Positions 2,173 to 20,065 of a DNA stretch of 64,000 nt are shown piece after piece. The notes beneath the pieces were generated by a model. The model saw only the letters and a list, made by a program, of their open reading frames with translations. It was not told the DNA's origin and ran no database searches. The stretch is from IMG/VR virus record IMGVR_UViG_3300045988_119557, positions 1-64,000 of that record, one strand, 5' to 3'. The stretch's first letter is position 1. The number at the start of each line of letters is the position of its first letter. This DNA comes from a virus. The position numbers and the translations under genes were made by a program.

Positions 2173-2528
2173 TGGTAGACTATCAAATATTATTAAAGTT
2201 GACTTCATTCAACAATGCCATTATCACAAGGGAAGAGATAAACGGAATAGAGGAAGAAGGAGTTTTTATTCCTCTTAAATATAATTCTATATTCCGTACC
2301 AGAGGCGGAGAGATAGCCGTAAATCTTTATGCTAAAGAGAAAAAACCAAATGCTTATGGTCAATCACATGTCATTTCTAACCAAATGAGTAAAAAGAAAT
2401 ATTTAGAATTGAAAGAACTTGGTTTTGAGACTGCTTTTATTGGTAATATGAAGATAGTTAGAAATGGCGGTTATAACTACCTAAAAATGCCCAACAAAGT
2501 TTCTTTGGATGAGGCATTGGAAAGATGA
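2172..2528 (+). CDS. hypothetical protein
   Basis: AAGGAGGAGTAATG start context overlapping the upstream stop. Confidence 0.55.
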   Translation: MVDYQILLKLTSFNNAIITREEINGIEEEGVFIPLKYNSIFRTRGGEIAVNLYAKEKKPNAYGQSHVISNQMSKKKYLELKELGFETAFIGNMKIVRNGGYNYLKMPNKVSLDEALER

Positions 2529-2544
2529 TAAAGAATAATTAGTT

Positions 2545-2868
2545 ATGAAAGAATGGATAAAGAATATTTGCGAGCAATTGGAATGTAGTGAGCAGCGTAA
2601 AAGGAAATTTATTCTTGAAATGTGCGATAAATATGTTGATCCAAAGTATAATAAACCTATTGGTATTACTGAAAAAAAGGAGGTTAATCAACTTTTGGGA
2701 TCTGCTATTGAAATATTTCTTTTTGTTACATGGTTGCATGAGAGGGGATATATTAAAATAACAAACAATGAATATATTGCAGTATCATCTATGATAGAGA
2801 ATCGAAAGGGCGATCTTTATGTATGTCCTGAACTTATAAACGCTTTTAGGCTTGATGTTGGACTATAA
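2545..2868 (+). CDS. hypothetical protein
   Basis: Same-strand ORF. The antisense ORF 2539..2739 is judged spurious. Confidence 0.5.
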   Translation: MKEWIKNICEQLECSEQRKRKFILEMCDKYVDPKYNKPIGITEKKEVNQLLGSAIEIFLFVTWLHERGYIKITNNEYIAVSSMIENRKGDLYVCPELINAFRLDVGL

Positions 2869-5766: not shown

Positions 5767-6072
5767 ATGGATATAGTACCTATTCTAACAAAAGATAATC
5801 TTTCTAAGGAACAGATAGAATATCTGCAAAAGCAGCAAACAGAATATAAATTAGTAAATAAGATTAAGAGGAATCCAGGGCATATCTTATTCTCTTTTAA
5901 TCTAAAAACAGGGGAAATCAAGAGAGCTGCTATTATACACAAGGCTGCTATTGGCTTGAATGGGCTTCCTGTAACTAAAACTGAAACGGTTATAGAACCT
6001 GATTGCTATTACGACCAAGCCTTGAATGAAAAGAATTTTAGAAAGAAATTGAAGAGATTTGGTATTAAGTGA
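5767..6072 (+). CDS. hypothetical protein
   Basis: Same-strand ORF, 4 nt after the previous stop. Confidence 0.5.
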   Translation: MDIVPILTKDNLSKEQIEYLQKQQTEYKLVNKIKRNPGHILFSFNLKTGEIKRAAIIHKAAIGLNGLPVTKTETVIEPDCYYDQALNEKNFRKKLKRFGIK

Positions 6073-6268
6073 AACGTATGAAGAAAAGGATAAGAAATAA
6101 AATGCTGAATAATCCCGGAAGGTATAAACTACATCAATATTTAAAGTATGCCCATCAATGGGTTATTTCACTTGTGTATAAAGGACGTTATTATACAATT
6201 TTAGATAATGGGAAAGTAGTAAAATTTGAATAGTAACGATTTAAGACGCGTTAAAATCCAATAATATA

Positions 6269-6913
6269 ATGAAAAAGATAATGTTTAATGATGAATACGG
6301 CTTAACCCGAGCCGTACTGAATGGCAGAAAAAGCCAGACGAGGAGAATTTCAAAAGAACAGATGCAGATACGCCGTAGTGTCTTTTATAAAAGCGGACTC
6401 GAGAGTATTCATGGATATGAAGTAAAGCCCCCTTACGATGTTGGCGAAGTTGTCGCTATTGCACAAAACTATAAATCAATCAATGAATTTTATGAAATAG
6501 CTTATAAAAGACATCACTCAGCGGATGGTCAACTTGCGACAGAGTATAATATCCCGTTTAAAGAAATAATTAAATGGTTCGAATTAAGAGAGAGTTTAAA
6601 AAACACTGCTGGATGGGATAATAAGATGTTTGTGAAAGCTAACTTAATGCTACATCATATCAAAATAACCAAAATAAGGTTTGAACGCTTACAAGATATT
6701 AGCGATAAAGATTGTTTGGAAGAGGGTGTCGTACAAAGATTTGATGCGGATGGGACACCGAGATACTATGTTTCTTGGTGTAAACATACATGGGCATATA
6801 TTACTGACAGCGCAAAAGACGCATATCATTTCCTTATAGACAAAGTATCCAGTAAAGGTATATGGGAGTCTAATCCCTACGTATGGGTATATGATTTTCA
6901 TTTAATTGATTAA
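6269..6913 (+). CDS. ASCH-like domain protein (tentative)
   Basis: The N-terminal FNDEYGLTRAVLNGRKSQTRR resembles the ASCH-type beta-barrel signature (GrKtqTRR). Confidence 0.4.
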   Translation: MKKIMFNDEYGLTRAVLNGRKSQTRRISKEQMQIRRSVFYKSGLESIHGYEVKPPYDVGEVVAIAQNYKSINEFYEIAYKRHHSADGQLATEYNIPFKEIIKWFELRESLKNTAGWDNKMFVKANLMLHHIKITKIRFERLQDISDKDCLEEGVVQRFDADGTPRYYVSWCKHTWAYITDSAKDAYHFLIDKVSSKGIWESNPYVWVYDFHLID

Positions 6914-6930
6914 TATTTAATAACAATAAC

Positions 6931-8877
6931 ATGAAAGAGATTAAATTAAAAAAGTTAATTCTCCAAAATTGGAGAGGAAGAAATCTTGTTATTTCATTTA
7001 AATTAGATGGAGTAACCAACATTATGGGACGTAATAAAAGTGGTAAAAGCTCTTTGAAAGATGCTTTTTTGTGGTTAATGACAGGATTTGATTCAAGCAA
7101 TCGCGCAAATTACAATCTTTTTGACAACAACCATAATTATACAGCAGAAGATTCTCCTGTTGCATCTGTTGAAGCTCTTATTGCCATTGACGGGAATGAA
7201 TTTTATTTTAAAAAAGAAGCAAAAAAGGGATGGATAAGAAGAAGAGGAAATAAAGAATATGAATTAAAAGGATCTGATGATTACGTCTGCTATTTTGATG
7301 GAATCGAAGTATCAGCCGGAGAATACAAGAAGCGAGTTTCCGAATTATTGTGCGAGATAGAGCCATTAAAGGTTATGTTGAATACCGAATATTTCCTTAG
7401 TTTAGAATGGAAACAACAACGCGAAATGCTTTCTTTATTAGCCGGAGACATCCAGGAAAGTGACTTCAAATCCAATTACAGCGATTTATTTCTTCTTTTG
7501 AAAAAATACTCGATTGATGAATTGAAAGCGCAAGTCAAGACAAAGATAAGTCCGATGAAGCAGCAATTAAGTTCTTTCCCTTTAACAATACAGACACTTG
7601 AACAACATTTGCCTGATATATCTAATGTTTGCGAATTAGAAAAAGAAATAGGGGAATTGAAAAGCAAAATCGCAGAGATAGATAATGCAATATTATCAGC
7701 TTCAAAAATGGCCGAGCCTTATATTGAGATGAGGAACAAACAATTGCAAGAATTATCTAATATCAATTCGGAGATTAGAAATAAGAAAAATGACTTTGAA
7801 TATAATCAGAATGAAAAGCCGAACAAAATCAGGAGACAGATACAGGAAGCCAAAAAAGAAAACGAATATATTCAAAGACAATGGGATAAAACGCAAGAAG
7901 AAAGAAAGTCTAATGAAACTAAATTAGCTCGGTTAAAAGCAAAGGTAGAAGAACACGATGAATATCGCAAAAAGCTATTAATTGAAAAAGACGAGTTGTT
8001 AAAAAGGGAATTTAACAGCGAAAAATGCTCTTTCTGCGGACAAGATCTTCCTGAATCAATGCTTGAAGCAAATAAAAAAGATTTTTATGAAAAAAGAGAA
8101 AATGCAGTAAATGATATTATTAAAAAGGGAAAAGAAAACAATGAAAGGAAACAAGAAAAACTTGAAGAAATAGAACGCATAGAAGCTCTATTAGCTGAGG
8201 ATATTGAAAGTCCGATGTATATTGACATAGAGGATCTGAAAAAGGAACTGCAAGAAGCAGAGCAAGAGACTTTGAATTTTGAAGATTCTGATGAATATAA
8301 AAAGCTAAAAGATAAAGCTGATGCAATTCAAAATGGGTTAACAGAAGTCCCAGTAGTAGATAATACTAATCTGCTAAATATGAAAGAATCATTGACTCTG
8401 CAAATTGAAGAGAAAAGCCGCGCAATGGGACTTGTCGATGAAAGAGAAAGACAATTAAAAACAATTGCTTCTTTAAAAAGAGAAATGCGCGAAGTTGCCG
8501 ATAGCTTGGCCGTGCAAGAGCAAATAGAGGCAAATATTAAATCCTATGAAGAAGAGCGCGCCCAAATTGTTTCTAACAAAGTAAATAAATATTTTAGTAG
8601 ATGCAATATTTCTATGATGCAACAGGACAAGTCTGGGCAATGGATACCGAGCTGCACAATAACTGTATCTGATGGCAGTTTGGTGAGCACCTGCAATGGA
8701 GCTGAAAATATTTTAGTAGGACTTGATATTTCGAATGCTTTTGCTTCGTATTATGACATTAGCTTGCCTGTATTTGTAGATGATGTAAATCTTATAAATA
8801 GCGATGTAAATATCGAAACAAACCATCAACTTATTAAATTGGTAGTTAGCGAAGACGAAAACATTATTGTTCGTTAA
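6931..8877 (+). CDS. Rad50/SbcC-like SMC-type ATPase
   Basis: Walker A GRNKSGKSS at the N-terminus and a long E/K-rich coiled coil. A CxxC (CSFCGQ, nt 8026-8037) sits mid-coil like a zinc hook, with Walker B PVFVDDV at the C-terminus. Confidence 0.75.
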   Translation: MKEIKLKKLILQNWRGRNLVISFKLDGVTNIMGRNKSGKSSLKDAFLWLMTGFDSSNRANYNLFDNNHNYTAEDSPVASVEALIAIDGNEFYFKKEAKKGWIRRRGNKEYELKGSDDYVCYFDGIEVSAGEYKKRVSELLCEIEPLKVMLNTEYFLSLEWKQQREMLSLLAGDIQESDFKSNYSDLFLLLKKYSIDELKAQVKTKISPMKQQLSSFPLTIQTLEQHLPDISNVCELEKEIGELKSKIAEIDNAILSASKMAEPYIEMRNKQLQELSNINSEIRNKKNDFEYNQNEKPNKIRRQIQEAKKENEYIQRQWDKTQEERKSNETKLARLKAKVEEHDEYRKKLLIEKDELLKREFNSEKCSFCGQDLPESMLEANKKDFYEKRENAVNDIIKKGKENNERKQEKLEEIERIEALLAEDIESPMYIDIEDLKKELQEAEQETLNFEDSDEYKKLKDKADAIQNGLTEVPVVDNTNLLNMKESLTLQIEEKSRAMGLVDERERQLKTIASLKREMREVADSLAVQEQIEANIKSYEEERAQIVSNKVNKYFSRCNISMMQQDKSGQWIPSCTITVSDGSLVSTCNGAENILVGLDISNAFASYYDISLPVFVDDVNLINSDVNIETNHQLIKLVVSEDENIIVR

Positions 8878-13744: not shown

Positions 13745-14480
13745 ATGGAAGAAGAACTAACGCATGGATCTTTGTTTAGTGGCGTAGAAGGATTTGGATT
13801 AGGCGCTGCTTTTGCTGGAATAAAAACTCTATGGAGTTGTGAATATGAAGACTATCAAGCGAATATAATTAAAAAGAATTTTGGAGAAGAGCATGAAATC
13901 AACAGAGATATTAAAACGTATTCAAAGCCAACATTTGTTGACATCATTAGCGGTGGATTCCCTTGTCAAGACATCAGCATTGCTGGAAAAGGTGTCGGAA
14001 TTGTCGGTGAACGAAGCGGATTATGGAATGAAATGTTCCGCATCATACGGGAAATTAGACCTAAATACATTATCATTGAAAACAGTCCTATGCTCTTGGT
14101 TCGAGGATTCGAACGAGTCTTATGCAACCTTTCCGAAATCGGGTATGATGCAGAATGGCAATGTTTATCGGGTACGGACTTTGGTATACAACAGGGTAGG
14201 GAGCGATTATATTGTATTGCCTACCCCCCACGAAATCGACAGCAAACGGAGCGTGCAAGAATCGGTATTTCGGAAGCCCTACCTATCGGGGCAATATACA
14301 CGAGTATATCCGGGATGGAGAACAAGACAGTCAATACCCTCACCCCGATTTGCTGGAAAGTCTAATGGGGTTCCCGATAGGATGGACAGAACGCATTGTA
14401 TAGGAAATGCGGTACAACCCATAATTGCGCATTATTTATTTGAATGTATAAAAAGCCATCATTTCACTAAAAGACCATGA
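13745..14480 (+). pseudogene. C5-cytosine DNA methyltransferase, disrupted by two frame changes
   Basis: Motif I LFSGVEGFGLG, IV GGFPCQDIS, VI IIENSP and VIII QQGRERLYCIAY are in frame 13745. LESLMGFPIGWTE is in frame 14212, and motif X IGNAVQP is in the frame ending at 14480. Confidence 0.8.
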
Positions 14481-15829
14481 CTGATAAACTACAAACCCTT
14501 ATTGAAAAATACAATAATAATTACTATTTCAAACAAGACCCGATCTCAATTGTAAAAAGATACAAAGAGCTAAGAGATATTGAAATAGCAGCTATTATCT
14601 GCTCTACATTAAGCTTCGGAAACAGACAGCAAATATATAAAGCATGTAAAAAGACAATGGATATGATGGGGACTTCGCCCTATAAATATCTAATGGATAG
14701 CAAGTATTTAGAATACAGAAATAGCGACGAATGTTGGTATCGTATGCTAAAGATGCGCGATTTTGCCATTTTATGTTTACGTTTAAAGAGTATATACGCA
14801 ACATATAATTCAATGGAATTGCTACTCTTAAATAGTAATGATTATGTGGAGACTCTAACCAATGTTTTTTATGGCTGTAATGGAATCCCTAAAGATAATA
14901 AATCGGCGTGCAAGCGAATTTGTCTGTTATTAAGGTGGCTTGTTAGACGAGATGGTAAAGTTGATATTGGCATATGGAGGAATTTAGATCAAAGCAAACT
15001 ACTATTACCTTTAGATGTACACAGCTTAAATACTTTACGCAAATTAGGCGTGTTAACGCGTAAAAGCAATGATATGAAAGCGGTAATAGAAGCTACTCAA
15101 TGGGCTAAATCCTTTTACCCTAATGACCCTGCCATTTTAGATTTTTTCCTTTTTGGAGAATCTTACGAAAGAGCGCATCCAGAGGAATTTAAAGAGCCAG
15201 AAAGGATTCCTATGACAAATGACCAAATATTGCTTGTCGCTACATATATTGTTATTTATGTCAACGAATTAGCCAATGTATGCGTCATGGACATTAAGCC
15301 ATCTATTACCAATAAGGACAAGGAGACTCAAAAGATTTATTTTGCAGCGCTTAAACGAGTTAAGGAGTATCAAAGTCGGATGGCTAAGATCGCAGGTGAT
15401 AATGCAATAGGTATCTATGCTTCTTACTGTGACGCTCTCGACCAAGAAGTATTACCTGTTATCGAGAAGTATCGAATGTCCATTGAGAAATATCTTTGTG
15501 AGATAGAAGGGGTTGAAAATCCCTATTTCCTATCAATGGTTGAATTAGCGCGAAGCATAACAAGTTATTCGGTTATTGCAATCTCAAAAAGAATAGCTGA
15601 ATGTTTGAAGTTTGATGAAAATGCAGTAGCTTTGCGAGGATATAAACAGTCCGAACTATTGAAGATCTTGGAAGAATTATGCAAATGGTGCTTTAGAAAA
15701 GCTTCTGATATAAATTACAATGAAAGTGAAGAATGCGTAAATGCCTATAGGGAATTTGACGCGATACTCACAAATCCGGATATTATTTCAACATGTATTA
15801 TTAACGCTAACGAATTAGAAAACAAATGA
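14477..15829 (+). CDS. DUF2400/TIGR02757-like protein with an extra ~200-aa C-terminal domain
   Basis: DPISIVKRYKELRDIEIAAIICSTLSFGNRQQI and LLLPLDVHSLNTLRKLGV...NDPAILDFFLFG match the TIGR02757 pattern as I recall it. ATGA overlap with the dcm C-terminal frame. Confidence 0.55.
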   Translation: MTDKLQTLIEKYNNNYYFKQDPISIVKRYKELRDIEIAAIICSTLSFGNRQQIYKACKKTMDMMGTSPYKYLMDSKYLEYRNSDECWYRMLKMRDFAILCLRLKSIYATYNSMELLLLNSNDYVETLTNVFYGCNGIPKDNKSACKRICLLLRWLVRRDGKVDIGIWRNLDQSKLLLPLDVHSLNTLRKLGVLTRKSNDMKAVIEATQWAKSFYPNDPAILDFFLFGESYERAHPEEFKEPERIPMTNDQILLVATYIVIYVNELANVCVMDIKPSITNKDKETQKIYFAALKRVKEYQSRMAKIAGDNAIGIYASYCDALDQEVLPVIEKYRMSIEKYLCEIEGVENPYFLSMVELARSITSYSVIAISKRIAECLKFDENAVALRGYKQSELLKILEELCKWCFRKASDINYNESEECVNAYREFDAILTNPDIISTCIINANELENK

Positions 15830-16407
15830 AAGTAAAAATTAAGAAAATACATAAAGACGAATTGTGGGAATTTTATCCATTAGACAATAGATACCTTATA
15901 TCAAATTACGGTAGAGTTTGGAGTACTATAAATAACAGGGAGCTTAAAAACAGTATAAATGGAGCAGGATATTTATGTTGTTTAGGAGAAAGTGTACATA
16001 GATTAGTGGCAGAAACATTTATCCCTAATGTGCATAATTATACAGAAGTAGACCATATTGATACAAATAGAAAAAATAATTTTGTTGGTAATCTAAAGTG
16101 GTGTAATCATCCCGAAAATTGCAAGAACCCCATAAGTATAAATAAAAGAAAATTAAAAGATGGTTTCCGAGTAAACTTAGGTGTAAGTTTTTCAGATGAG
16201 CATAAAAAGAAAATATCAGAAGCGCAAATCGGGAACAGAGGTATTCCAGTAATACAAATGTCATTAGATGGGGATTTTATTAAAGAGTATGTAAGCCTTA
16301 ATCAAGCTGCGAAACAGAATAATATATCCAGGAGGAATATATCAAGATGTTGCAATGGAATTTACAGTCAGGCAAATGGTTATAAATGGATATATAAAAA
16401 TAAATGA
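15826..16407 (+). CDS. free-standing HNH homing endonuclease (NUMOD4 + HNH_3 + NUMOD1-like)
   Basis: NRYLISNYGRVWS, and VHRLVAETF...VDHIDTNRKNNFVGNLKW. C-terminal LNQAAKQNNISRRNISRCC HTH-like repeat. Confidence 0.8.
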   Translation: MKVKIKKIHKDELWEFYPLDNRYLISNYGRVWSTINNRELKNSINGAGYLCCLGESVHRLVAETFIPNVHNYTEVDHIDTNRKNNFVGNLKWCNHPENCKNPISINKRKLKDGFRVNLGVSFSDEHKKKISEAQIGNRGIPVIQMSLDGDFIKEYVSLNQAAKQNNISRRNISRCCNGIYSQANGYKWIYKNK

Positions 16408-16802
16408 TAATTTTTAGAACTATGGAATTAAAAGAGTATCAAAATCAAGCAATGACTACTTGTATGCCAAGTAGTGAAAATTTTAGTTATATGTTCCTTA
16501 ACCTTATTGGCGAAGTAGGAGAATTTGCGAGTAAGGTGTCAAAGCAAATTCGCAAAAGCAATATGAACATTGAGGATTCTCAATTAGCATTTACAACTAA
16601 AGCAGATATTAATGATTTAGATTGTTTTTATGAGGAATTACAGAAAGAGGCAGGAGATATTTTATGGCAGTTGAGTGGTCTATGCACCGTAATGGGTTGG
16701 TCTTTAGAAGATATTGCTCAAATTAACTTAGATAAACTTGCTTCTCGTAAGGCTATTGGAACGATAGACGGTAATGGAGATGGGATAATTAGGGGGAAAT
16801 AA
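16404..16802 (+). CDS. MazG-like nucleotide pyrophosphohydrolase
   Basis: EYQNQAMTT...LIGEVGEFASKV...EAGDILWQLSGLC...DIAQINLDKLASR is typical of the all-alpha NTP-PPase fold. Confidence 0.7.
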   Translation: MIIFRTMELKEYQNQAMTTCMPSSENFSYMFLNLIGEVGEFASKVSKQIRKSNMNIEDSQLAFTTKADINDLDCFYEELQKEAGDILWQLSGLCTVMGWSLEDIAQINLDKLASRKAIGTIDGNGDGIIRGK

Positions 16803-17143: not shown

Positions 17144-17371
17144 ATGAATATAAAAGAGGCGGTAAAAGACTATATAGAAGACTTCCCAGAGTGTTTTAGA
17201 TTTAAAAGATCCGACGTTGCGGATGCCTTTGAAGCAGGTGCAGAATGGCAAGCAAAGCAAGGAGATCTCGAATCCATGCTTAGGAAACTAAAGGGGAAAG
17301 CGTTAAAAGCTTTCCTCGAATGTGAAGGATACGATGAATTTGAACGTGAAATTAATTCTTTGACAGAATGA
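17144..17371 (+). CDS. hypothetical protein sharing the GAEWQAKQ motif
   Basis: AFEAGAEWQAKQ is identical in core to the motif in 4741..5157. Confidence 0.5.
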   Translation: MNIKEAVKDYIEDFPECFRFKRSDVADAFEAGAEWQAKQGDLESMLRKLKGKALKAFLECEGYDEFEREINSLTE

Positions 17372-17547
17372 GCAATACTGGGTACAAATACATTCATTTT
17401 AATAGAAGCAGTAAGAAGTTCCAAGTAAAAATATGGAATGGGGATAGAAACATATATTTCAAAGAATGGAAAACATTGGAAGAAGCTATTAAAGTGAGAG
17501 AAGAGAAAATGAAAGAATTAGGATTAACTTTATATTTGGATAAATAA
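17368..17547 (+). CDS. small AP2-like DNA-binding protein (59 aa, below the ORF-track cut-off)
   Basis: ATGA overlap with the upstream stop. GYKYIHFNRSSKKFQVKIWNGDRNIYFKEWKTLEEAIKVREEKMKEL resembles an AP2 domain. Confidence 0.4.
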   Translation: MSNTGYKYIHFNRSSKKFQVKIWNGDRNIYFKEWKTLEEAIKVREEKMKELGLTLYLDK

Positions 17548-17548
17548 A

Positions 17549-17767
17549 ATGAAGATAGAAATAGATATTCCAGATCCTTTTATTTCGGATGAAAATAGTT
17601 ATCTCTCCATTAGTGGCGATAATTTCGAATATTGCAGATTTGATAAAATTTATCGTGGTTTACAATGCAACCATGAAAAAGATTCTAAGGAATACTGTGT
17701 CCTTCAATCAAAATTAGATATTATATCTGATGAAATCATTAATTTAATAACAAATAAACTCTTATGA
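17549..17767 (+). CDS. hypothetical protein
   Basis: Same-strand ORF starting 2 nt after the previous stop. Confidence 0.45.
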   Translation: MKIEIDIPDPFISDENSYLSISGDNFEYCRFDKIYRGLQCNHEKDSKEYCVLQSKLDIISDEIINLITNKLL

Positions 17768-17865
17768 AGTATTTTACGATTGAAGAGCTAACGCGCTCAA
17801 CCACAGCAACGGCAAAAAGCAGGAAGAGAAAGAAAAAACAAGTTATTCACAAGGGGAAGGCATAA
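17764..17865 (+). pseudogene. N-terminal relic of an M15-family peptidase (endolysin-type)
   Basis: MKYFTIEELTRSTTATA matches the conserved start of D-Ala-D-Ala carboxypeptidase-family (Peptidase_M15_3) phage and Bacteroidota proteins. It then degenerates into a K/R-rich tail and a stop after 33 aa. Confidence 0.5.
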
Positions 17866-17882
17866 TACCCCTTAAAACATTT

Positions 17883-18659
17883 ATGAAAATGGAAAAGTTG
17901 AATATGAACCTGTTTGTGGAAAAATCAAACAATGTACATTCCAATAAATATGATTACTCGAAAGTAAGCTATATAAACAATAAAACAAAAATTTGTATTA
18001 TATGCCCGATTCATGGAGAGTTTTTTCAGACACCGAACTCTCACATAACTGGTCATGGTTGTCCAAAGTGTAAATCATGTAATAATAAGAAACTTATTTT
18101 TGGGGTTGGTATAAATGATTTAAACGATTACATATTTTCTGACTATAAGTTATCAAAATGTTATACCGTTTGGCATAGTATGCTTAGGAGATGTTATTCA
18201 AGCGTATATCAAAAACATAAGAAAAGTTATATAGGATGTAGCGTTTGTAGTGAATGGTTGTTTTTATCTAACTTTTATAAATGGTTTAATGAAAACCACG
18301 TGGACGGTTTTGAGCTTGATAAAGATATTCTATTTAAGGGTAATAAAATTTATAGTCCACAAACATGTAGTTTTATCCCTCGGAGGATAAACTGCTTATT
18401 AGTGTCATGTAAATCTAAAAGGGGTATTTATCCGATAGGAGTTAAGAGAAATGGAAAATTATACGAATCTTCATGCAAAATCAATGGGAAAGATGTGTAT
18501 TTGGGATTGTTTAAAAATGCAAATGACGCTTTTTTAGCGTATAAAAAATTTAAAGAATCTTATATAAAGGAATTGGCTACAAGTTACTATAACAATGGTA
18601 ATATTACAAAAGAGGTATATAACGCTTTGTTAAAATACGAAGTAGAAATAAATGATTAA
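17883..18659 (+). CDS. AP2-domain endonuclease-like protein (homing-endonuclease-associated architecture)
   Basis: N-terminal Zn-ribbon-like module (KICIICPIHGEFFQTPNSHITGHGCPKC). C-terminal AP2-like GVKRNGKLYESSCKINGKDVYLGLFKNANDAFLAYKKF. Confidence 0.55.
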   Translation: MKMEKLNMNLFVEKSNNVHSNKYDYSKVSYINNKTKICIICPIHGEFFQTPNSHITGHGCPKCKSCNNKKLIFGVGINDLNDYIFSDYKLSKCYTVWHSMLRRCYSSVYQKHKKSYIGCSVCSEWLFLSNFYKWFNENHVDGFELDKDILFKGNKIYSPQTCSFIPRRINCLLVSCKSKRGIYPIGVKRNGKLYESSCKINGKDVYLGLFKNANDAFLAYKKFKESYIKELATSYYNNGNITKEVYNALLKYEVEIND

Positions 18660-19122
18660 TATGGAATTAAAAGCAAAGAGAATTTTCAAAGGTAGTTTGT
18701 ATACTATCAGCAAGTTATATGTAGATGGTGTTTACGAATGTGATGTGTTAGAGGATACCGATAGAGATCTTTCGGATAGCATGGATATATCAGAGATAAA
18801 GAAAGTGAAACAGTACGGAAAGACAGCTATTCCCACAGGAACGTATGCCATTGATATGGATACTGTCAGCCCTAAATTCAAAGATCGTGGGTGGGCAAAG
18901 GTGTGTAGCGGTAAACTACCTCGACTCAGAAATGTAAAGGGTTTCGATGGCGTATTAATCCACGTAGGAAATAAATCGGAGGATACATTAGGATGCTTAT
19001 TGACAGGATACAACAAAGTGAAGGGGCAAGTCGTAAACAGTACAGTCGCTTTCACTAAGTTATATGAAAAGATGAAAGAAGCGCATGAAAGAGGCGAATG
19101 TATTAACTTAACTATCGAATAA
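18652..19122 (+). CDS. DUF5675-like protein (possible cell-wall enzyme, YkuD-like HxnGC signature)
   Basis: YTISKLYVDGVYECDVLED...GKTAIPTGTY...GVLIHVGNKSEDTLGCLLTG. Confidence 0.5.
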   Translation: MINMELKAKRIFKGSLYTISKLYVDGVYECDVLEDTDRDLSDSMDISEIKKVKQYGKTAIPTGTYAIDMDTVSPKFKDRGWAKVCSGKLPRLRNVKGFDGVLIHVGNKSEDTLGCLLTGYNKVKGQVVNSTVAFTKLYEKMKEAHERGECINLTIE

Positions 19123-19197
19123 CATGAGCGCGATTTTTCGTGGGTGCATGTATCTTACAATCCAAATAGACTAAGAAAGCAAGTGCTAAAAATGTGA
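19123..19197 (+). pseudogene. C-terminal relic of an M15-family peptidase
   Basis: Reads HERDFSWVHVSYNPNRLRKQVLKM-stop. WVHVSY...R.QVL is the conserved C-terminus of the same family as the relic at 17764. It is in frame with, and directly after, the DUF5675 TAA. Confidence 0.5.
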
Positions 19198-19226
19198 AAA
19201 AACTTTAGTGTTTAGTTTTTAACTAC

Positions 19227-19234
19227 TATATTTG
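19227..19234 (+). promoter_or_regulatory. -7 promoter box (TAtaTTTG)
   Basis: Exact TAnnTTTG match 109 nt upstream of ATG 19343. Confidence 0.5.
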
Positions 19235-19286
19235 CAGCGTCAGCCACCACTGACACAAAAAGAAGAAATAGTTTTATCTATATATT

Positions 19287-19330
19287 AATCGGGATTTAGA
19301 TGCGTGGTGGCTCTATTTCCCGATTTTTTT
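19287..19330 (+). terminator. intrinsic-terminator-like hairpin inside a 5' leader
   Basis: AATCGGGA-tt-TAGA-tgcgtggtggc-TCTA-tt-TCCCGATT followed by a T7 run, ending 12 nt before the antirepressor ATG. Confidence 0.55.
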
Positions 19331-19342
19331 ATAAAAAGCAAT

Positions 19343-20065
19343 ATGAAAGAATTAGTATTTAAAGGAGAATCAAATCAAGTTTTAACGAACAGTCTGCTGG
19401 TGGCAGAAAAGTTTGGGAAAGAACACAAAAGAGTAATGCAGGATATAAGAGAATTAAAATGCAGTAATCAATTTAAACAGCACAATTTCGTGCTTTCCTC
19501 TTATAAGAGTGAACAGAATCGAGAATTGCCTATGTATGTGATGAATAAAGACGGATTTACTCTTTTAGTTATGGGATATACTGGTGAAATAGCTATGAAA
19601 TTTAAGGAGGAATACATTAAGGCTTTCAATGAAATGGAGGAGATTATAAAAAATGGAAGCTATTGTGTGCCTAAATCATTCCGTGAAGCTCTTTTACTTG
19701 CAGCCGAACAACAGGCTCAGATTGAACAACAGCAAATGCGTATTGAAGAGATGAAACCTAAAGAAGAGTTTTTTGATCAAGTAACAGATAGTAAGGACGC
19801 ATGTGATATGGCAACAGTGGCTAAAGTACTAAACATGGGAGTTGGTAGAAACAAACTATTTGAAATATTGAGAGATAAGAAAGTCCTCCAAGAGAGAAAC
19901 GCACCATACCAGTCTTACATAGATAGAGGATGGTTTAGAGTCATAGAAAGCAAATACACCAAGCCCAATGGAGACATGTGTGTAAACTACAAAACCATAG
20001 TTTATCAAAAAGGCATAGATGGTATCAGAAAGCTATTATCAGAACTAAAGAATGCCGGGGAGTAA
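19343..20065 (+). CDS. phage antirepressor (Rha-like N-terminus + ANT-like C-terminus)
   Basis: VLTNSLLVAEKFGKEHKRVMQDIREL (Rha-like) and C-terminal DMATVAKVLNMGVGRNKLFEILRDKKVL. ATG 19343 is preferred over the track start 19304. Confidence 0.7.
   Translation: MKELVFKGESNQVLTNSLLVAEKFGKEHKRVMQDIRELKCSNQFKQHNFVLSSYKSEQNRELPMYVMNKDGFTLLVMGYTGEIAMKFKEEYIKAFNEMEEIIKNGSYCVPKSFREALLLAAEQQAQIEQQQMRIEEMKPKEEFFDQVTDSKDACDMATVAKVLNMGVGRNKLFEILRDKKVLQERNAPYQSYIDRGWFRVIESKYTKPNGDMCVNYKTIVYQKGIDGIRKLLSELKNAGE

Follow-up and report, generated by a model that had tools for sequence, protein, structure and literature searches.

Probable replacement of an M15 endolysin core by a segment carrying endonuclease-like and DUF5675 genes in an uncultured Bacteroides-type gut phage

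Background

Free-standing homing endonuclease genes (HEGs) such as the seg and mob genes of T4 are known in phages for 'intronless homing'. It is also established that free-standing HEGs lie by essential genes, that nuclease genes stand at the boundaries of exchanged regions, and that endolysin genes are exchanged as modules. HEG-bounded exchange regions were described by Barth, Dunham & Seed, together with IPA-HNH HEGs and DUF723/CapR-like modules (PMC10055350). Here we describe a locus (17,549 to 19,197) in a 64,000-nucleotide (nt) stretch of viral DNA, IMG/VR record IMGVR_UViG_3300045988_119557, positions 1 to 64,000 (hereafter the window), in which the two ends of a Peptidase_M15_3 endolysin gene bracket a 1.3-kb insert carrying a homing-endonuclease-like gene (HE) and a DUF5675 gene.

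It is very likely that the core of this M15 endolysin gene was overwritten by a 1.3-kb segment from the lysis module of a B124-like phage, through two illegitimate joints, and that the cassette subsequently spread by recombination through the relic. The window phage is an uncultured gut phage of Bacteroides type with a genome of approximately 80 kb, of which about 15-20 kb lies outside the window. The loci and contigs with which it was compared are designated by L-numbers (such as L019).

Organization of the locus

The insert (17818..19123) and the features around it are as follows.

17764..17817, plus strand: N-terminal relic, M15_3 codons 1-18 (MKYFTIEELTRSTTATAK); matches endolysin N-termini by tblastn (E = 7e-3)
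17818..17882, plus strand: imported non-coding leader, consisting of the last ~47 nt of a donor gene for a membrane protein of 164 amino acids (aa) and an intergenic hairpin; from the alignment to L040
17851-17856 (AAGGGG) and 17868-17873 (CCCCTT), plus strand: the two arms of the intergenic hairpin, within the leader
17883..18659 (alternative start 17889), plus strand: HE, free-standing homing-endonuclease-like gene, 258 aa; PHROG 953, with a Zn-ribbon, a divergent HNH-like core and an AP2-like domain
18661..19122 (open reading frame readable from 18652), plus strand: DUF5675 gene, 153 aa, presumed replacement endolysin; Pfam PF18925
19123..19127, plus strand: right junction, C (19123) and ATGA (19124-19127), the start-codon region of the donor's downstream DUF6549 gene
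19124..19197, plus strand: C-terminal relic, M15_3 codons ~108-131 and stop; tblastn E = 2e-5
17549..17767, plus strand: orf72, the gene upstream of the N relic, its TGA overlapping the relic ATG (ATGA); context, outside the insert

The open reading frame (ORF) at 17764..17865 consists of MKYFTIEELTRSTTATAK followed by SRKRKKKQVIHKGKA and a stop codon (17863..17865). The sequence 19123..19197 translates as HERDFSWVHVSYNPNRLRKQVLKM followed by a stop, in frame with the DUF5675 TAA at 19120..19122 and directly after it. These ORFs and peptides, and the in-frame position of the C relic, are as described in the initial annotation of this DNA, of which two boundaries require correction. The C relic, which had been taken to begin at 19123, is M15-derived from 19124 onward, position 19123 being a donor base. 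The DUF5675 ORF and its stop stand as annotated (18652..19122), with the likely start at 18661 instead of 18652; the HE stop is 1 nt ahead of this start.

The arrangement of N relic, HE, DUF5675 and C relic was found in at least 14 independent assemblies, and it is therefore not an assembly artefact. When IMG/VR and JGI metagenomes were scanned for the junction of the DUF5675 stop with the M15 relic, matches were confined to the window phage family. In megablast searches against GenBank phages, the sole match to the 4-kb locus was an antirepressor and the sole match to 25 kb of the structural region was a 300-nt patch, indicating that the phage has no close cultured relative. Rfam and tRNA scans of the window produced no match.

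M15 remnants and the ancestral allele

The relic peptides were searched by tblastn against 50,697 phage records. The C peptide matches the last 23-24 codons of endolysin genes in Bacteroides siphophages and crAss-like phages (best E = 2e-5), and the first 20 aa of the N peptide match the opening codons of these genes (E = 7e-3). Both relics fall on one 131-aa gene in B124-14 (CCE45946; MKYFTLKELTRSTTATAKGIDN...ERDFSWVHVSYDPSNLKNQILKL, or MKYFTLKELTRSTTATAKGIDNTP...LIDERDFSWVHVSYDPSNLKNQILKL in a longer reading), with which the N relic agrees at 16 of 18 residues. The N-relic ATG is the start used by the intact M15 genes of L019-L024. A tblastn search with the whole 33-aa N ORF gave no match, probably as a result of masking of its K-rich tail. 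Of the profile and tblastn searches that the initial annotation had proposed as a check, the latter thus found the family, while the Pfam profile PF08291 matched neither relic nor their concatenation, the relics being too short. At the identical position, L019 carries an intact gene identified as Peptidase_M15_3 (PF08291, E = 8.1e-23). The tblastn matches to both gene termini and the synteny with the intact L019 gene show the relics to be homologous to M15_3 residues 1-18 and 108-131, in agreement with their first description as M15-type termini.

Between the relics, ~89 residues (codons 19-107) are missing, much as the initial annotation had estimated for the absent catalytic middle (~90 aa), and with them the SDH and D zinc-ligand motifs. 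Of the ligands His...Asp...His (SDH / A(A/V)D / WVHV), two of three are lost and only the last His (WVHVSY) is kept. Together the relics hold 42 of ~131 residues, and by all appearances of their sequence the M15 termini are dead scars, a pseudogene.

Related contigs, many of them ~50-86 kb in length, were gathered using the upstream gene 17368..17547 as an IMG/VR anchor and by exact-sequence lookups of close DUF5675 and HE homologues. Among the contigs compared, the locus was found in five states.

State A: intact M15, 131-135 aa (L019-L023)
State B: M15 with an intein after SDH, before C (L024), at the same site as in Bacteroides phage BF766P4
State C: N relic, HE, DUF5675 and C relic (window; L006-L018)
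State D: DUF5675 and C relic, without HE and without the N relic (L028-L031)
State E: donor-type arrangements in B124-14-like phages

An intact M15 gene, for which the initial annotation had suggested searching related phages, is thus present at the same position in L019-L023 and, with an intein, in L024. The ancestral gene at the locus is an intact Peptidase_M15_3 endolysin of 131-135 aa. The window flanks are nearest to those of the intact-M15 contig L019, with 99.4% identity upstream. The C relic itself is mosaic: the junction-linked part, 19124..19140, has the L023/L024 type of allele, and 19141..19197 is 100% identical to the L019-type resident allele. The small gene orf72 precedes intact M15 in L019-L021, L023, and L024, and is absent from L022 and from all other cassette loci.

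The insertion in the M15 endolysin gene of L024 (5397..6815) is also found in L003 (Bacteroides phage BF766P4, OP172679.1; 1948..3366). In both, ~340 aa are inserted in frame after SDH and before C, ending ...GN ahead of that C; the insertion has a weak LAGLIDADG_3 match and looks like an intein. BF766P4 is a cultured B. fragilis phage in which the insertion is annotated as a 'hypothetical protein', and L024 is a sister of the window phage. A group I intron or intein in the M15 gene of the window was considered and rejected: there is no Rfam match in the window, the insert consists of two free-standing genes, and L024 and BF766P4 are the only loci with the intein. In the crAss-like phage cr114_1 (L002, NC_055897.1), the annotated M15 endolysin ORF (2180..2575) contains three in-frame stops (table 11), consistent with stop-codon recoding.

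Origin of the insert and its junctions

In B124-14, the M15 gene sits between a gene for a 164-aa protein with multiple hydrophobic segments, followed by a hairpin, and a gene for a 201-aa DUF6549 protein. VA7, BF766P1, L032, and L044-L050 have DUF5675 in the exact M15 slot, as an ATG-to-stop swap between the same flanks; in B124-like phages, one slot is filled by either DUF5675 or M15. The best 60 M15 matches include the other B124-like phages, but neither VA7 nor BF766P1. In L038 (47,371 base pairs) and L040, contigs of 47-89 kb, HE and DUF5675 together lie between the genes that flank M15 in B124-14. HE in L038, L040, and L034 is 79-82% identical to that of the window and sits precisely in the interval from the hairpin to the DUF5675 ATG, and the HE/DUF5675 overlap (...GAAATAAATGATTAA(C/T)ATGG) is alike in these three contigs and the window.

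Window positions 17815..19127 align by blastn to L040 3930..5239 as a single block with 84.0% identity over 1314 columns; identity to L038 is 80%, and both alignments end at 19127. This colinearity points to the HE and DUF5675 endolysin slot of a B124-14-like Bacteroides siphophage, a relative of L040 and L038, as the probable donor. The imported block comprises the tail (~47 nt) of the donor's 164-aa gene, the hairpin, HE, DUF5675, and TAAC with the ATGA of the donor's next gene. In L040, the upstream gene ends in ...EEQEEKEKQVIHKGV followed by a stop. The lysine- and arginine-rich tail of the N ORF (SRKRKKKQVIHKGKA), which the initial annotation had interpreted as decayed M15, is instead the imported end of this donor gene, translated at first in the wrong frame and then in the right one. 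The window and L006 differ by a 1-nt indel (one A) in an A-run of the leader, which causes a different tail to be read, and the tail is thus without coding constraint.

The left junction (...ACGGCAAAA joined to AGCAGGAAG at 17817 and 17818) is ambiguous by no more than 1-2 nt and is essentially blunt. The right junction reads ...GAATAAC followed by ATGAGCGCGATTTTTCG (TAAC joined to ATGAGCGCG); its counterparts are TAACATGAaacgg in the donor and atcaATGAgcgcgatttttcg in the L023/L024-type M15 allele (..atcaATGAgcgcg..). ATGA is common to the donor and the recipient M15 allele, a 4-nt microhomology at the right joint. Both joints are, to judge from these alignments, illegitimate, as expected for two phage families with almost no nucleotide similarity. 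That the C relic follows the DUF5675 TAA in frame is explained by this one shared junction, and nothing points to readthrough. The synonymous substitution rate (dS) between the window and L040 is ~0.8-0.9, indicating that the event is old.

Arrival of the N relic with the donor DNA was considered and rejected, as L038 and L040 are without any M15 remnant. The surviving donor start codon opens a 16-codon out-of-frame ORF (MSAIFRGCMYLTIQID and a stop; 19124..19174) across the M15 relic; this ORF is probably meaningless, although it may be translated.

Genes of the cassette

The DUF5675 protein matches PF18925 over profile positions 3-114 of 114 (84.8 bits against a cut-off of 26.7 bits, E = 4.9e-24), in accordance with its first identification. 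Residues H101, G103, N104, D108, G111, and C112 are invariant in 42 homologues (IHVGN...D.LGC). The spacing between the His and Cys residues is 11 residues, which is shorter than in the YkuD motif. The AlphaFold2 (AF2) model of the protein has a predicted local distance difference test (pLDDT) score of 88.4. In BFVD, this model matches crAss 'L,D-carboxypeptidase/transpeptidase' proteins as well as DUF5675 domains within viral proteins of 868-1251 aa whose role is unknown; there are weaker matches to a 'tape measure domain protein' (E = 6.6e-4) and weak ones to a Tlde1-domain protein (9e-3) and an endolysin (1e-2). The protein is 63-67% identical to proteins of crAss-like phages, in whose records DUF5675 is annotated as a lysis-module L,D-carboxypeptidase beside a holin. 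To our knowledge, DUF5675 has no experimentally defined activity. A 2026 preprint labels the domain C82-like from structural alignments (bioRxiv 10.64898/2026.04.11.717860).

In lysis modules, DUF5675 alternates with M15 at the endolysin position, and we infer from this positional and comparative case that it is the replacement endolysin. The earlier proposal that one lysin was replaced by another is supported by position, through the occupancy of the M15 slot in B124-14-like phages and the lysis-module annotation in crAss-like phages. Among the PHROG matches listed for the other proteins of the window, there is no other endolysin family, and no contig of the family with intact M15 is found among the IMG/VR contigs with a close DUF5675.

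HE matches PHROG 953, 'HNH endonuclease', with E = 9.6e-72. It is composed of a Zn-ribbon of the DUF723/DUF4379 type, a divergent HNH-like core, and a C-terminal AP2-like domain. The Zn-ribbon is an N-terminal CPxHGxFxQ...GxGCxxC motif, which is repeated in longer homologues, and an alignment of the family shows the core as an invariant LDKD...GN.IYSP.TC.F.P..IN. Pfam gives a weak DUF4379/DUF723 Zn-ribbon match; the precomputed assignment of HE is PF05265, and PF00847 is precomputed on several homologues. NCBIfam matches neither HE nor DUF5675. The AF2 model of HE has a pLDDT of 92, and the best Foldseek matches of its C-terminus in the Protein Data Bank (PDB) are plant AP2/ERF domains (7wq5 and 1gcc, probability 1.00; 7et5, 0.98) with E ~0.08-0.09. 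The gene had been called AP2-endonuclease-like from its letters alone, and both the PHROG profile and the fold of the C-terminus agree with that name.

HE is present in L038, L040, and L034 and absent from VA7, BF766P1, L032, and L044-L050, with the difference falling at exact ORF boundaries. Such sporadic, ORF-precise presence and absence is typical of free-standing HEGs. The ratio of nonsynonymous to synonymous substitution rates (dN/dS) is 0.12-0.16 for HE and 0.03-0.07 for DUF5675, indicating purifying selection on both cassette genes.

A second gene in the phage family has also been partly overwritten by the HE family. The window encodes a 450-aa protein (14477..15829) whose first 221 residues form the DUF2400 part; in L010 (1580..3016), L012, L013, L019, and L020 these residues are exchanged for a 47%-identical HE paralogue, which runs in frame into the unaltered C-terminal 229 residues (97% identity).

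Two other endonuclease-related observations were made near the cassette. The 59-aa ORF just upstream of the locus (17368..17547) matches PHROG 'HNH endonuclease' families over an AP2-like region alone; it could represent an AP2 domain on its own or what is left of another HEG. An HNH_3/NUMOD HEG (15826..16407) and a MazG gene (16404..16802) are shared by the window and L013, and the place of these genes (15826..16802) is taken by a 155-aa ORF in L006 and in most of the other relatives, an endonuclease-linked polymorphism within 2 kb of the cassette.

Recombination after the insertion

Three different 3' haplotypes of the C relic are found on one identical right junction; each equals a resident allele with its own downstream module.

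NPNRLRKQVLKM: window and L010; matches the L019 allele
DPSNLKKQILKL: L006 type; with a different downstream module
WIHVSYNPNRLRKQVLKM: L028 type; matches the L022 allele

The occurrence of three haplotypes on one junction indicates repeated crossovers in the conserved WVHVSY block, with the relic serving as a homology arm. DUF5675 is internally mosaic when the window is compared with L006: identity is 83-89% in nt 67-198 of the gene (window 18727..18858) and at least 97% in the rest, and nt 133-198 of the window gene are 95% identical to the B124-like allele of L045. This mosaicism suggests that gene conversion between the two families of phages is ongoing.

State D (L028-L031) shares its right junction with state C. 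Its left joint, TAA followed by TAGATTATGG, is as in HE-less B124-like phages (...CATT followed by TAGATTATGG), and its DUF5675 is closer throughout to the HE-less B124-like alleles. State D as a simple deletion derivative of the cassette state is rejected by the left joint and the affinity of the DUF5675 allele; the same evidence points to at least two exchanges with B124-like phages at the locus. A four-gamete argument on the left side (presence or absence of orf72 against cassette or M15) carries less weight, as orf72 is flanked by ATGAAG repeats and could have been lost recurrently.

A TnpB/IS605-OrfB (Cas12f-like) gene is located a few hundred bases 3' of the C relic in L008, L009, L014, and L015 (~5874..7007) and in L028 (5919..7052). 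It is not found at the corresponding site in the window, where PHROG transposase families match a protein elsewhere. The intergenic sequence after the relic (19198..19345) is conserved and has no Rfam match. It contains TATATTTG (19227..19234), which resembles a Bacteroides -7 promoter box, and nested inverted repeats: GCCACCAC (19243..19250) with GTGGTGGC (19304..19311), and AATCGGGA...TCCCGATT followed by a T-run.

Mechanism and alternative explanations

In the course of events that best fits these observations, a 1.3-kb segment would have been copied from the endolysin slot of a B124-14-like siphophage and would have replaced M15 codons 19 to ~107 through the blunt left joint and the 4-nt ATGA joint on the right. 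DUF5675 would now supply the lysis enzyme, and the cassette would then have moved within the family by homologous recombination, with the relics and flanks as arms. As for the trigger, HE may have cut M15 in a mixed infection, with resection stopping at the retained termini and the break being patched from a non-homologous donor. A cut of this kind would account for the two M15 ends that bracket the insert. It is supported indirectly by the sporadic and ORF-precise distribution of HE, by purifying selection, by the paralogue that overwrote 221 residues of another gene, and by the intein in the same M15 gene. We put HE cleavage of M15 forward tentatively, as a conceivable trigger that falls somewhat short of being probable. 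A broader version, which seems to us unlikely, is that HE and DUF5675 form a two-gene 'lysin-replacement drive': HE would specifically cut the M15-type endolysin genes of co-infecting Bacteroides phages, and it could invade and destroy this essential gene even in unrelated families without flanking homology, since it carries a non-homologous substitute endolysin that rescues the recipient.

Several observations weigh against replacement of the M15 core by a single HE-driven event that supplied a new lysin. The left joint of L028-L031 comes from an HE-less donor, so the history involves more than one exchange; and, the event being old, the sampled B124-like contigs are relatives of the donor and not the donor itself. 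In HE, a Lys is invariant where the general-base His of HNH is expected (LDKD in place of the D-H motif), Pfam HNH_3 gives no match, and Foldseek against PDB recovers the AP2 part alone and no nuclease. The target of HE could lie in the HE-less DUF5675 locus instead of in M15. With respect to DUF5675, Foldseek against PDB finds no L,D-transpeptidase/YkuD-type (MEROPS C82) relative (the best matches, to unrelated proteins, have E = 0.065 and a template modelling (TM) score of 0.19), and a sequence-profile search against PDB sequences finds nothing; its presumed muralytic role is argued from gene position, annotation, and weak BFVD matches. The screen of the window for other lysins covered the full PHROG list for one of three protein sets and the families listed for the other two, and ~15-20 kb of the genome lies beyond the window.

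The alternative that survives best accepts the same structure and makes HE a passenger: ordinary illegitimate recombination between co-infecting phages would have produced the replacement, which was then kept by selection as DUF5675 works as a lysin. A left joint with little or no microhomology and a right joint of 4 nt are what classical phage mosaic joints look like, an HE-less DUF5675 also entered the locus (L028-L031) through a left joint like that of HE-less donors, and the canonical HNH His is absent. A passenger is harder to reconcile with the purifying selection on HE, its ORF-precise gain or loss, the paralogue's partial overwriting of another gene in the phage family, and the targeting of the same M15 gene by an intein. 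We judge a passenger HE to be a credible possibility, though one that we would not call probable.

The 258-aa protein might instead not be a nuclease at all and be a Zn-ribbon and AP2 DNA-binding regulator of the adjacent lysis gene, travelling with DUF5675 as a regulatory pair. Its confidently recognised domains are all of DNA-binding type (the Zn-ribbon, with its weak DUF4379/DUF723 match, and the AP2 fold), it has a DKD motif instead of DH, and a single nt separates its stop from the DUF5675 start. Many DUF5675 lysis genes, however, function without HE (VA7, BF766P1, L044-50, L028), the profile matches to PHROGs annotated as HNH endonuclease are strong, and the architecture fits the IPA-HNH class of Barth et al. 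(PMC10055350), all of which makes a regulator improbable.

That M15 still works, be it split, interrupted by an intron or intein, or recoded, with the two fragments as exons, can be dismissed as extremely improbable: the C fragment does keep the frame behind the DUF5675 TAA and inteins do occur in the M15 genes of L024 and BF766P4, but the fragments amount to 42 residues without the SDH...D zinc ligands, the window has no Rfam intron or other RNA family, the N-fragment tail is frameshifted between the window and L006, and the intervening DNA consists of two intact foreign genes colinear with another phage.

Replacement of the M15 core by a donor segment with DUF5675 is thus the reading that we retain. 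The initial annotation had named two observations that would speak against it, short peptides unlike M15 termini and related genomes with no intact ancestor; the relics match M15 termini, and intact ancestors exist at the position.

Significance

Because the sequence directly reveals both joints, the lineage of the donor, and the intact allele of the ancestor, this locus offers a rare case in which the swap of an essential lysis enzyme for an unrelated one can be fully reconstructed. Three kinds of selfish or mobile DNA have exploited one small endolysin gene: an intein, a free-standing gene of endonuclease type that brings cargo, and gene conversion without HE. The position of DUF5675 is evidence that it is a genuine alternative endolysin in Bacteroides phages of the gut, and the locus nominates M15 endolysin genes as a candidate target for an uncharacterised and very large family of Zn-ribbon/HNH-like/AP2 proteins. 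Should M15 prove to be the target of HE, the two genes would together form a selfish element carrying its own rescue, with bearing on phage engineering and on the diversification of lysis modules.

Comparison with known systems

The relics are homologous to Peptidase_M15_3 endolysins such as the putative peptidase of B124-14 and the endolysins of crAss-like phages, and the ancestral gene is a bona fide PF08291 member; unlike those enzymes, the relics hold 42 of ~131 residues and have lost two of three metal ligands. The DUF5675 protein of the window belongs to the same Pfam family as the 'L,D-carboxypeptidase/transpeptidase' of crAss001-like phages and has the same invariant His and Cys.

As in modular endolysin exchange, M15_3 and DUF5675 alternate in the B124-14-like slot, where the swap is clean from ATG to stop. 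In the window, by contrast, the swap took place inside the resident gene and left both termini. The neighbourhood in the window (MazG, methylases, antirepressors) also forms no recognisable lysis cassette, unlike the lysis cassettes in which modular exchange occurs.

Like free-standing HEGs and the IPA-HNH HEGs (PMC10055350), HE is an ORF-sized endonuclease-like gene of sporadic distribution. As in the HEG-bounded exchanges of the same report (PMC10055350), it adjoins or lies within an essential gene where a recombinant segment ends, with neighbouring DNA co-transferred, and its divergent HNH-like core, C-terminal AP2 domain, and Zn-finger (DUF723/CapR-like) modules recall the IPA-HNH proteins. 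Three features set it apart from known HEG systems: a Lys stands in place of the catalytic His, the gene transferred along with it is a presumed functional replacement, non-homologous to the gene lost in the exchange, and the founding event joined unrelated phage families without flanking homology. The latter two are the less usual aspects of this locus.

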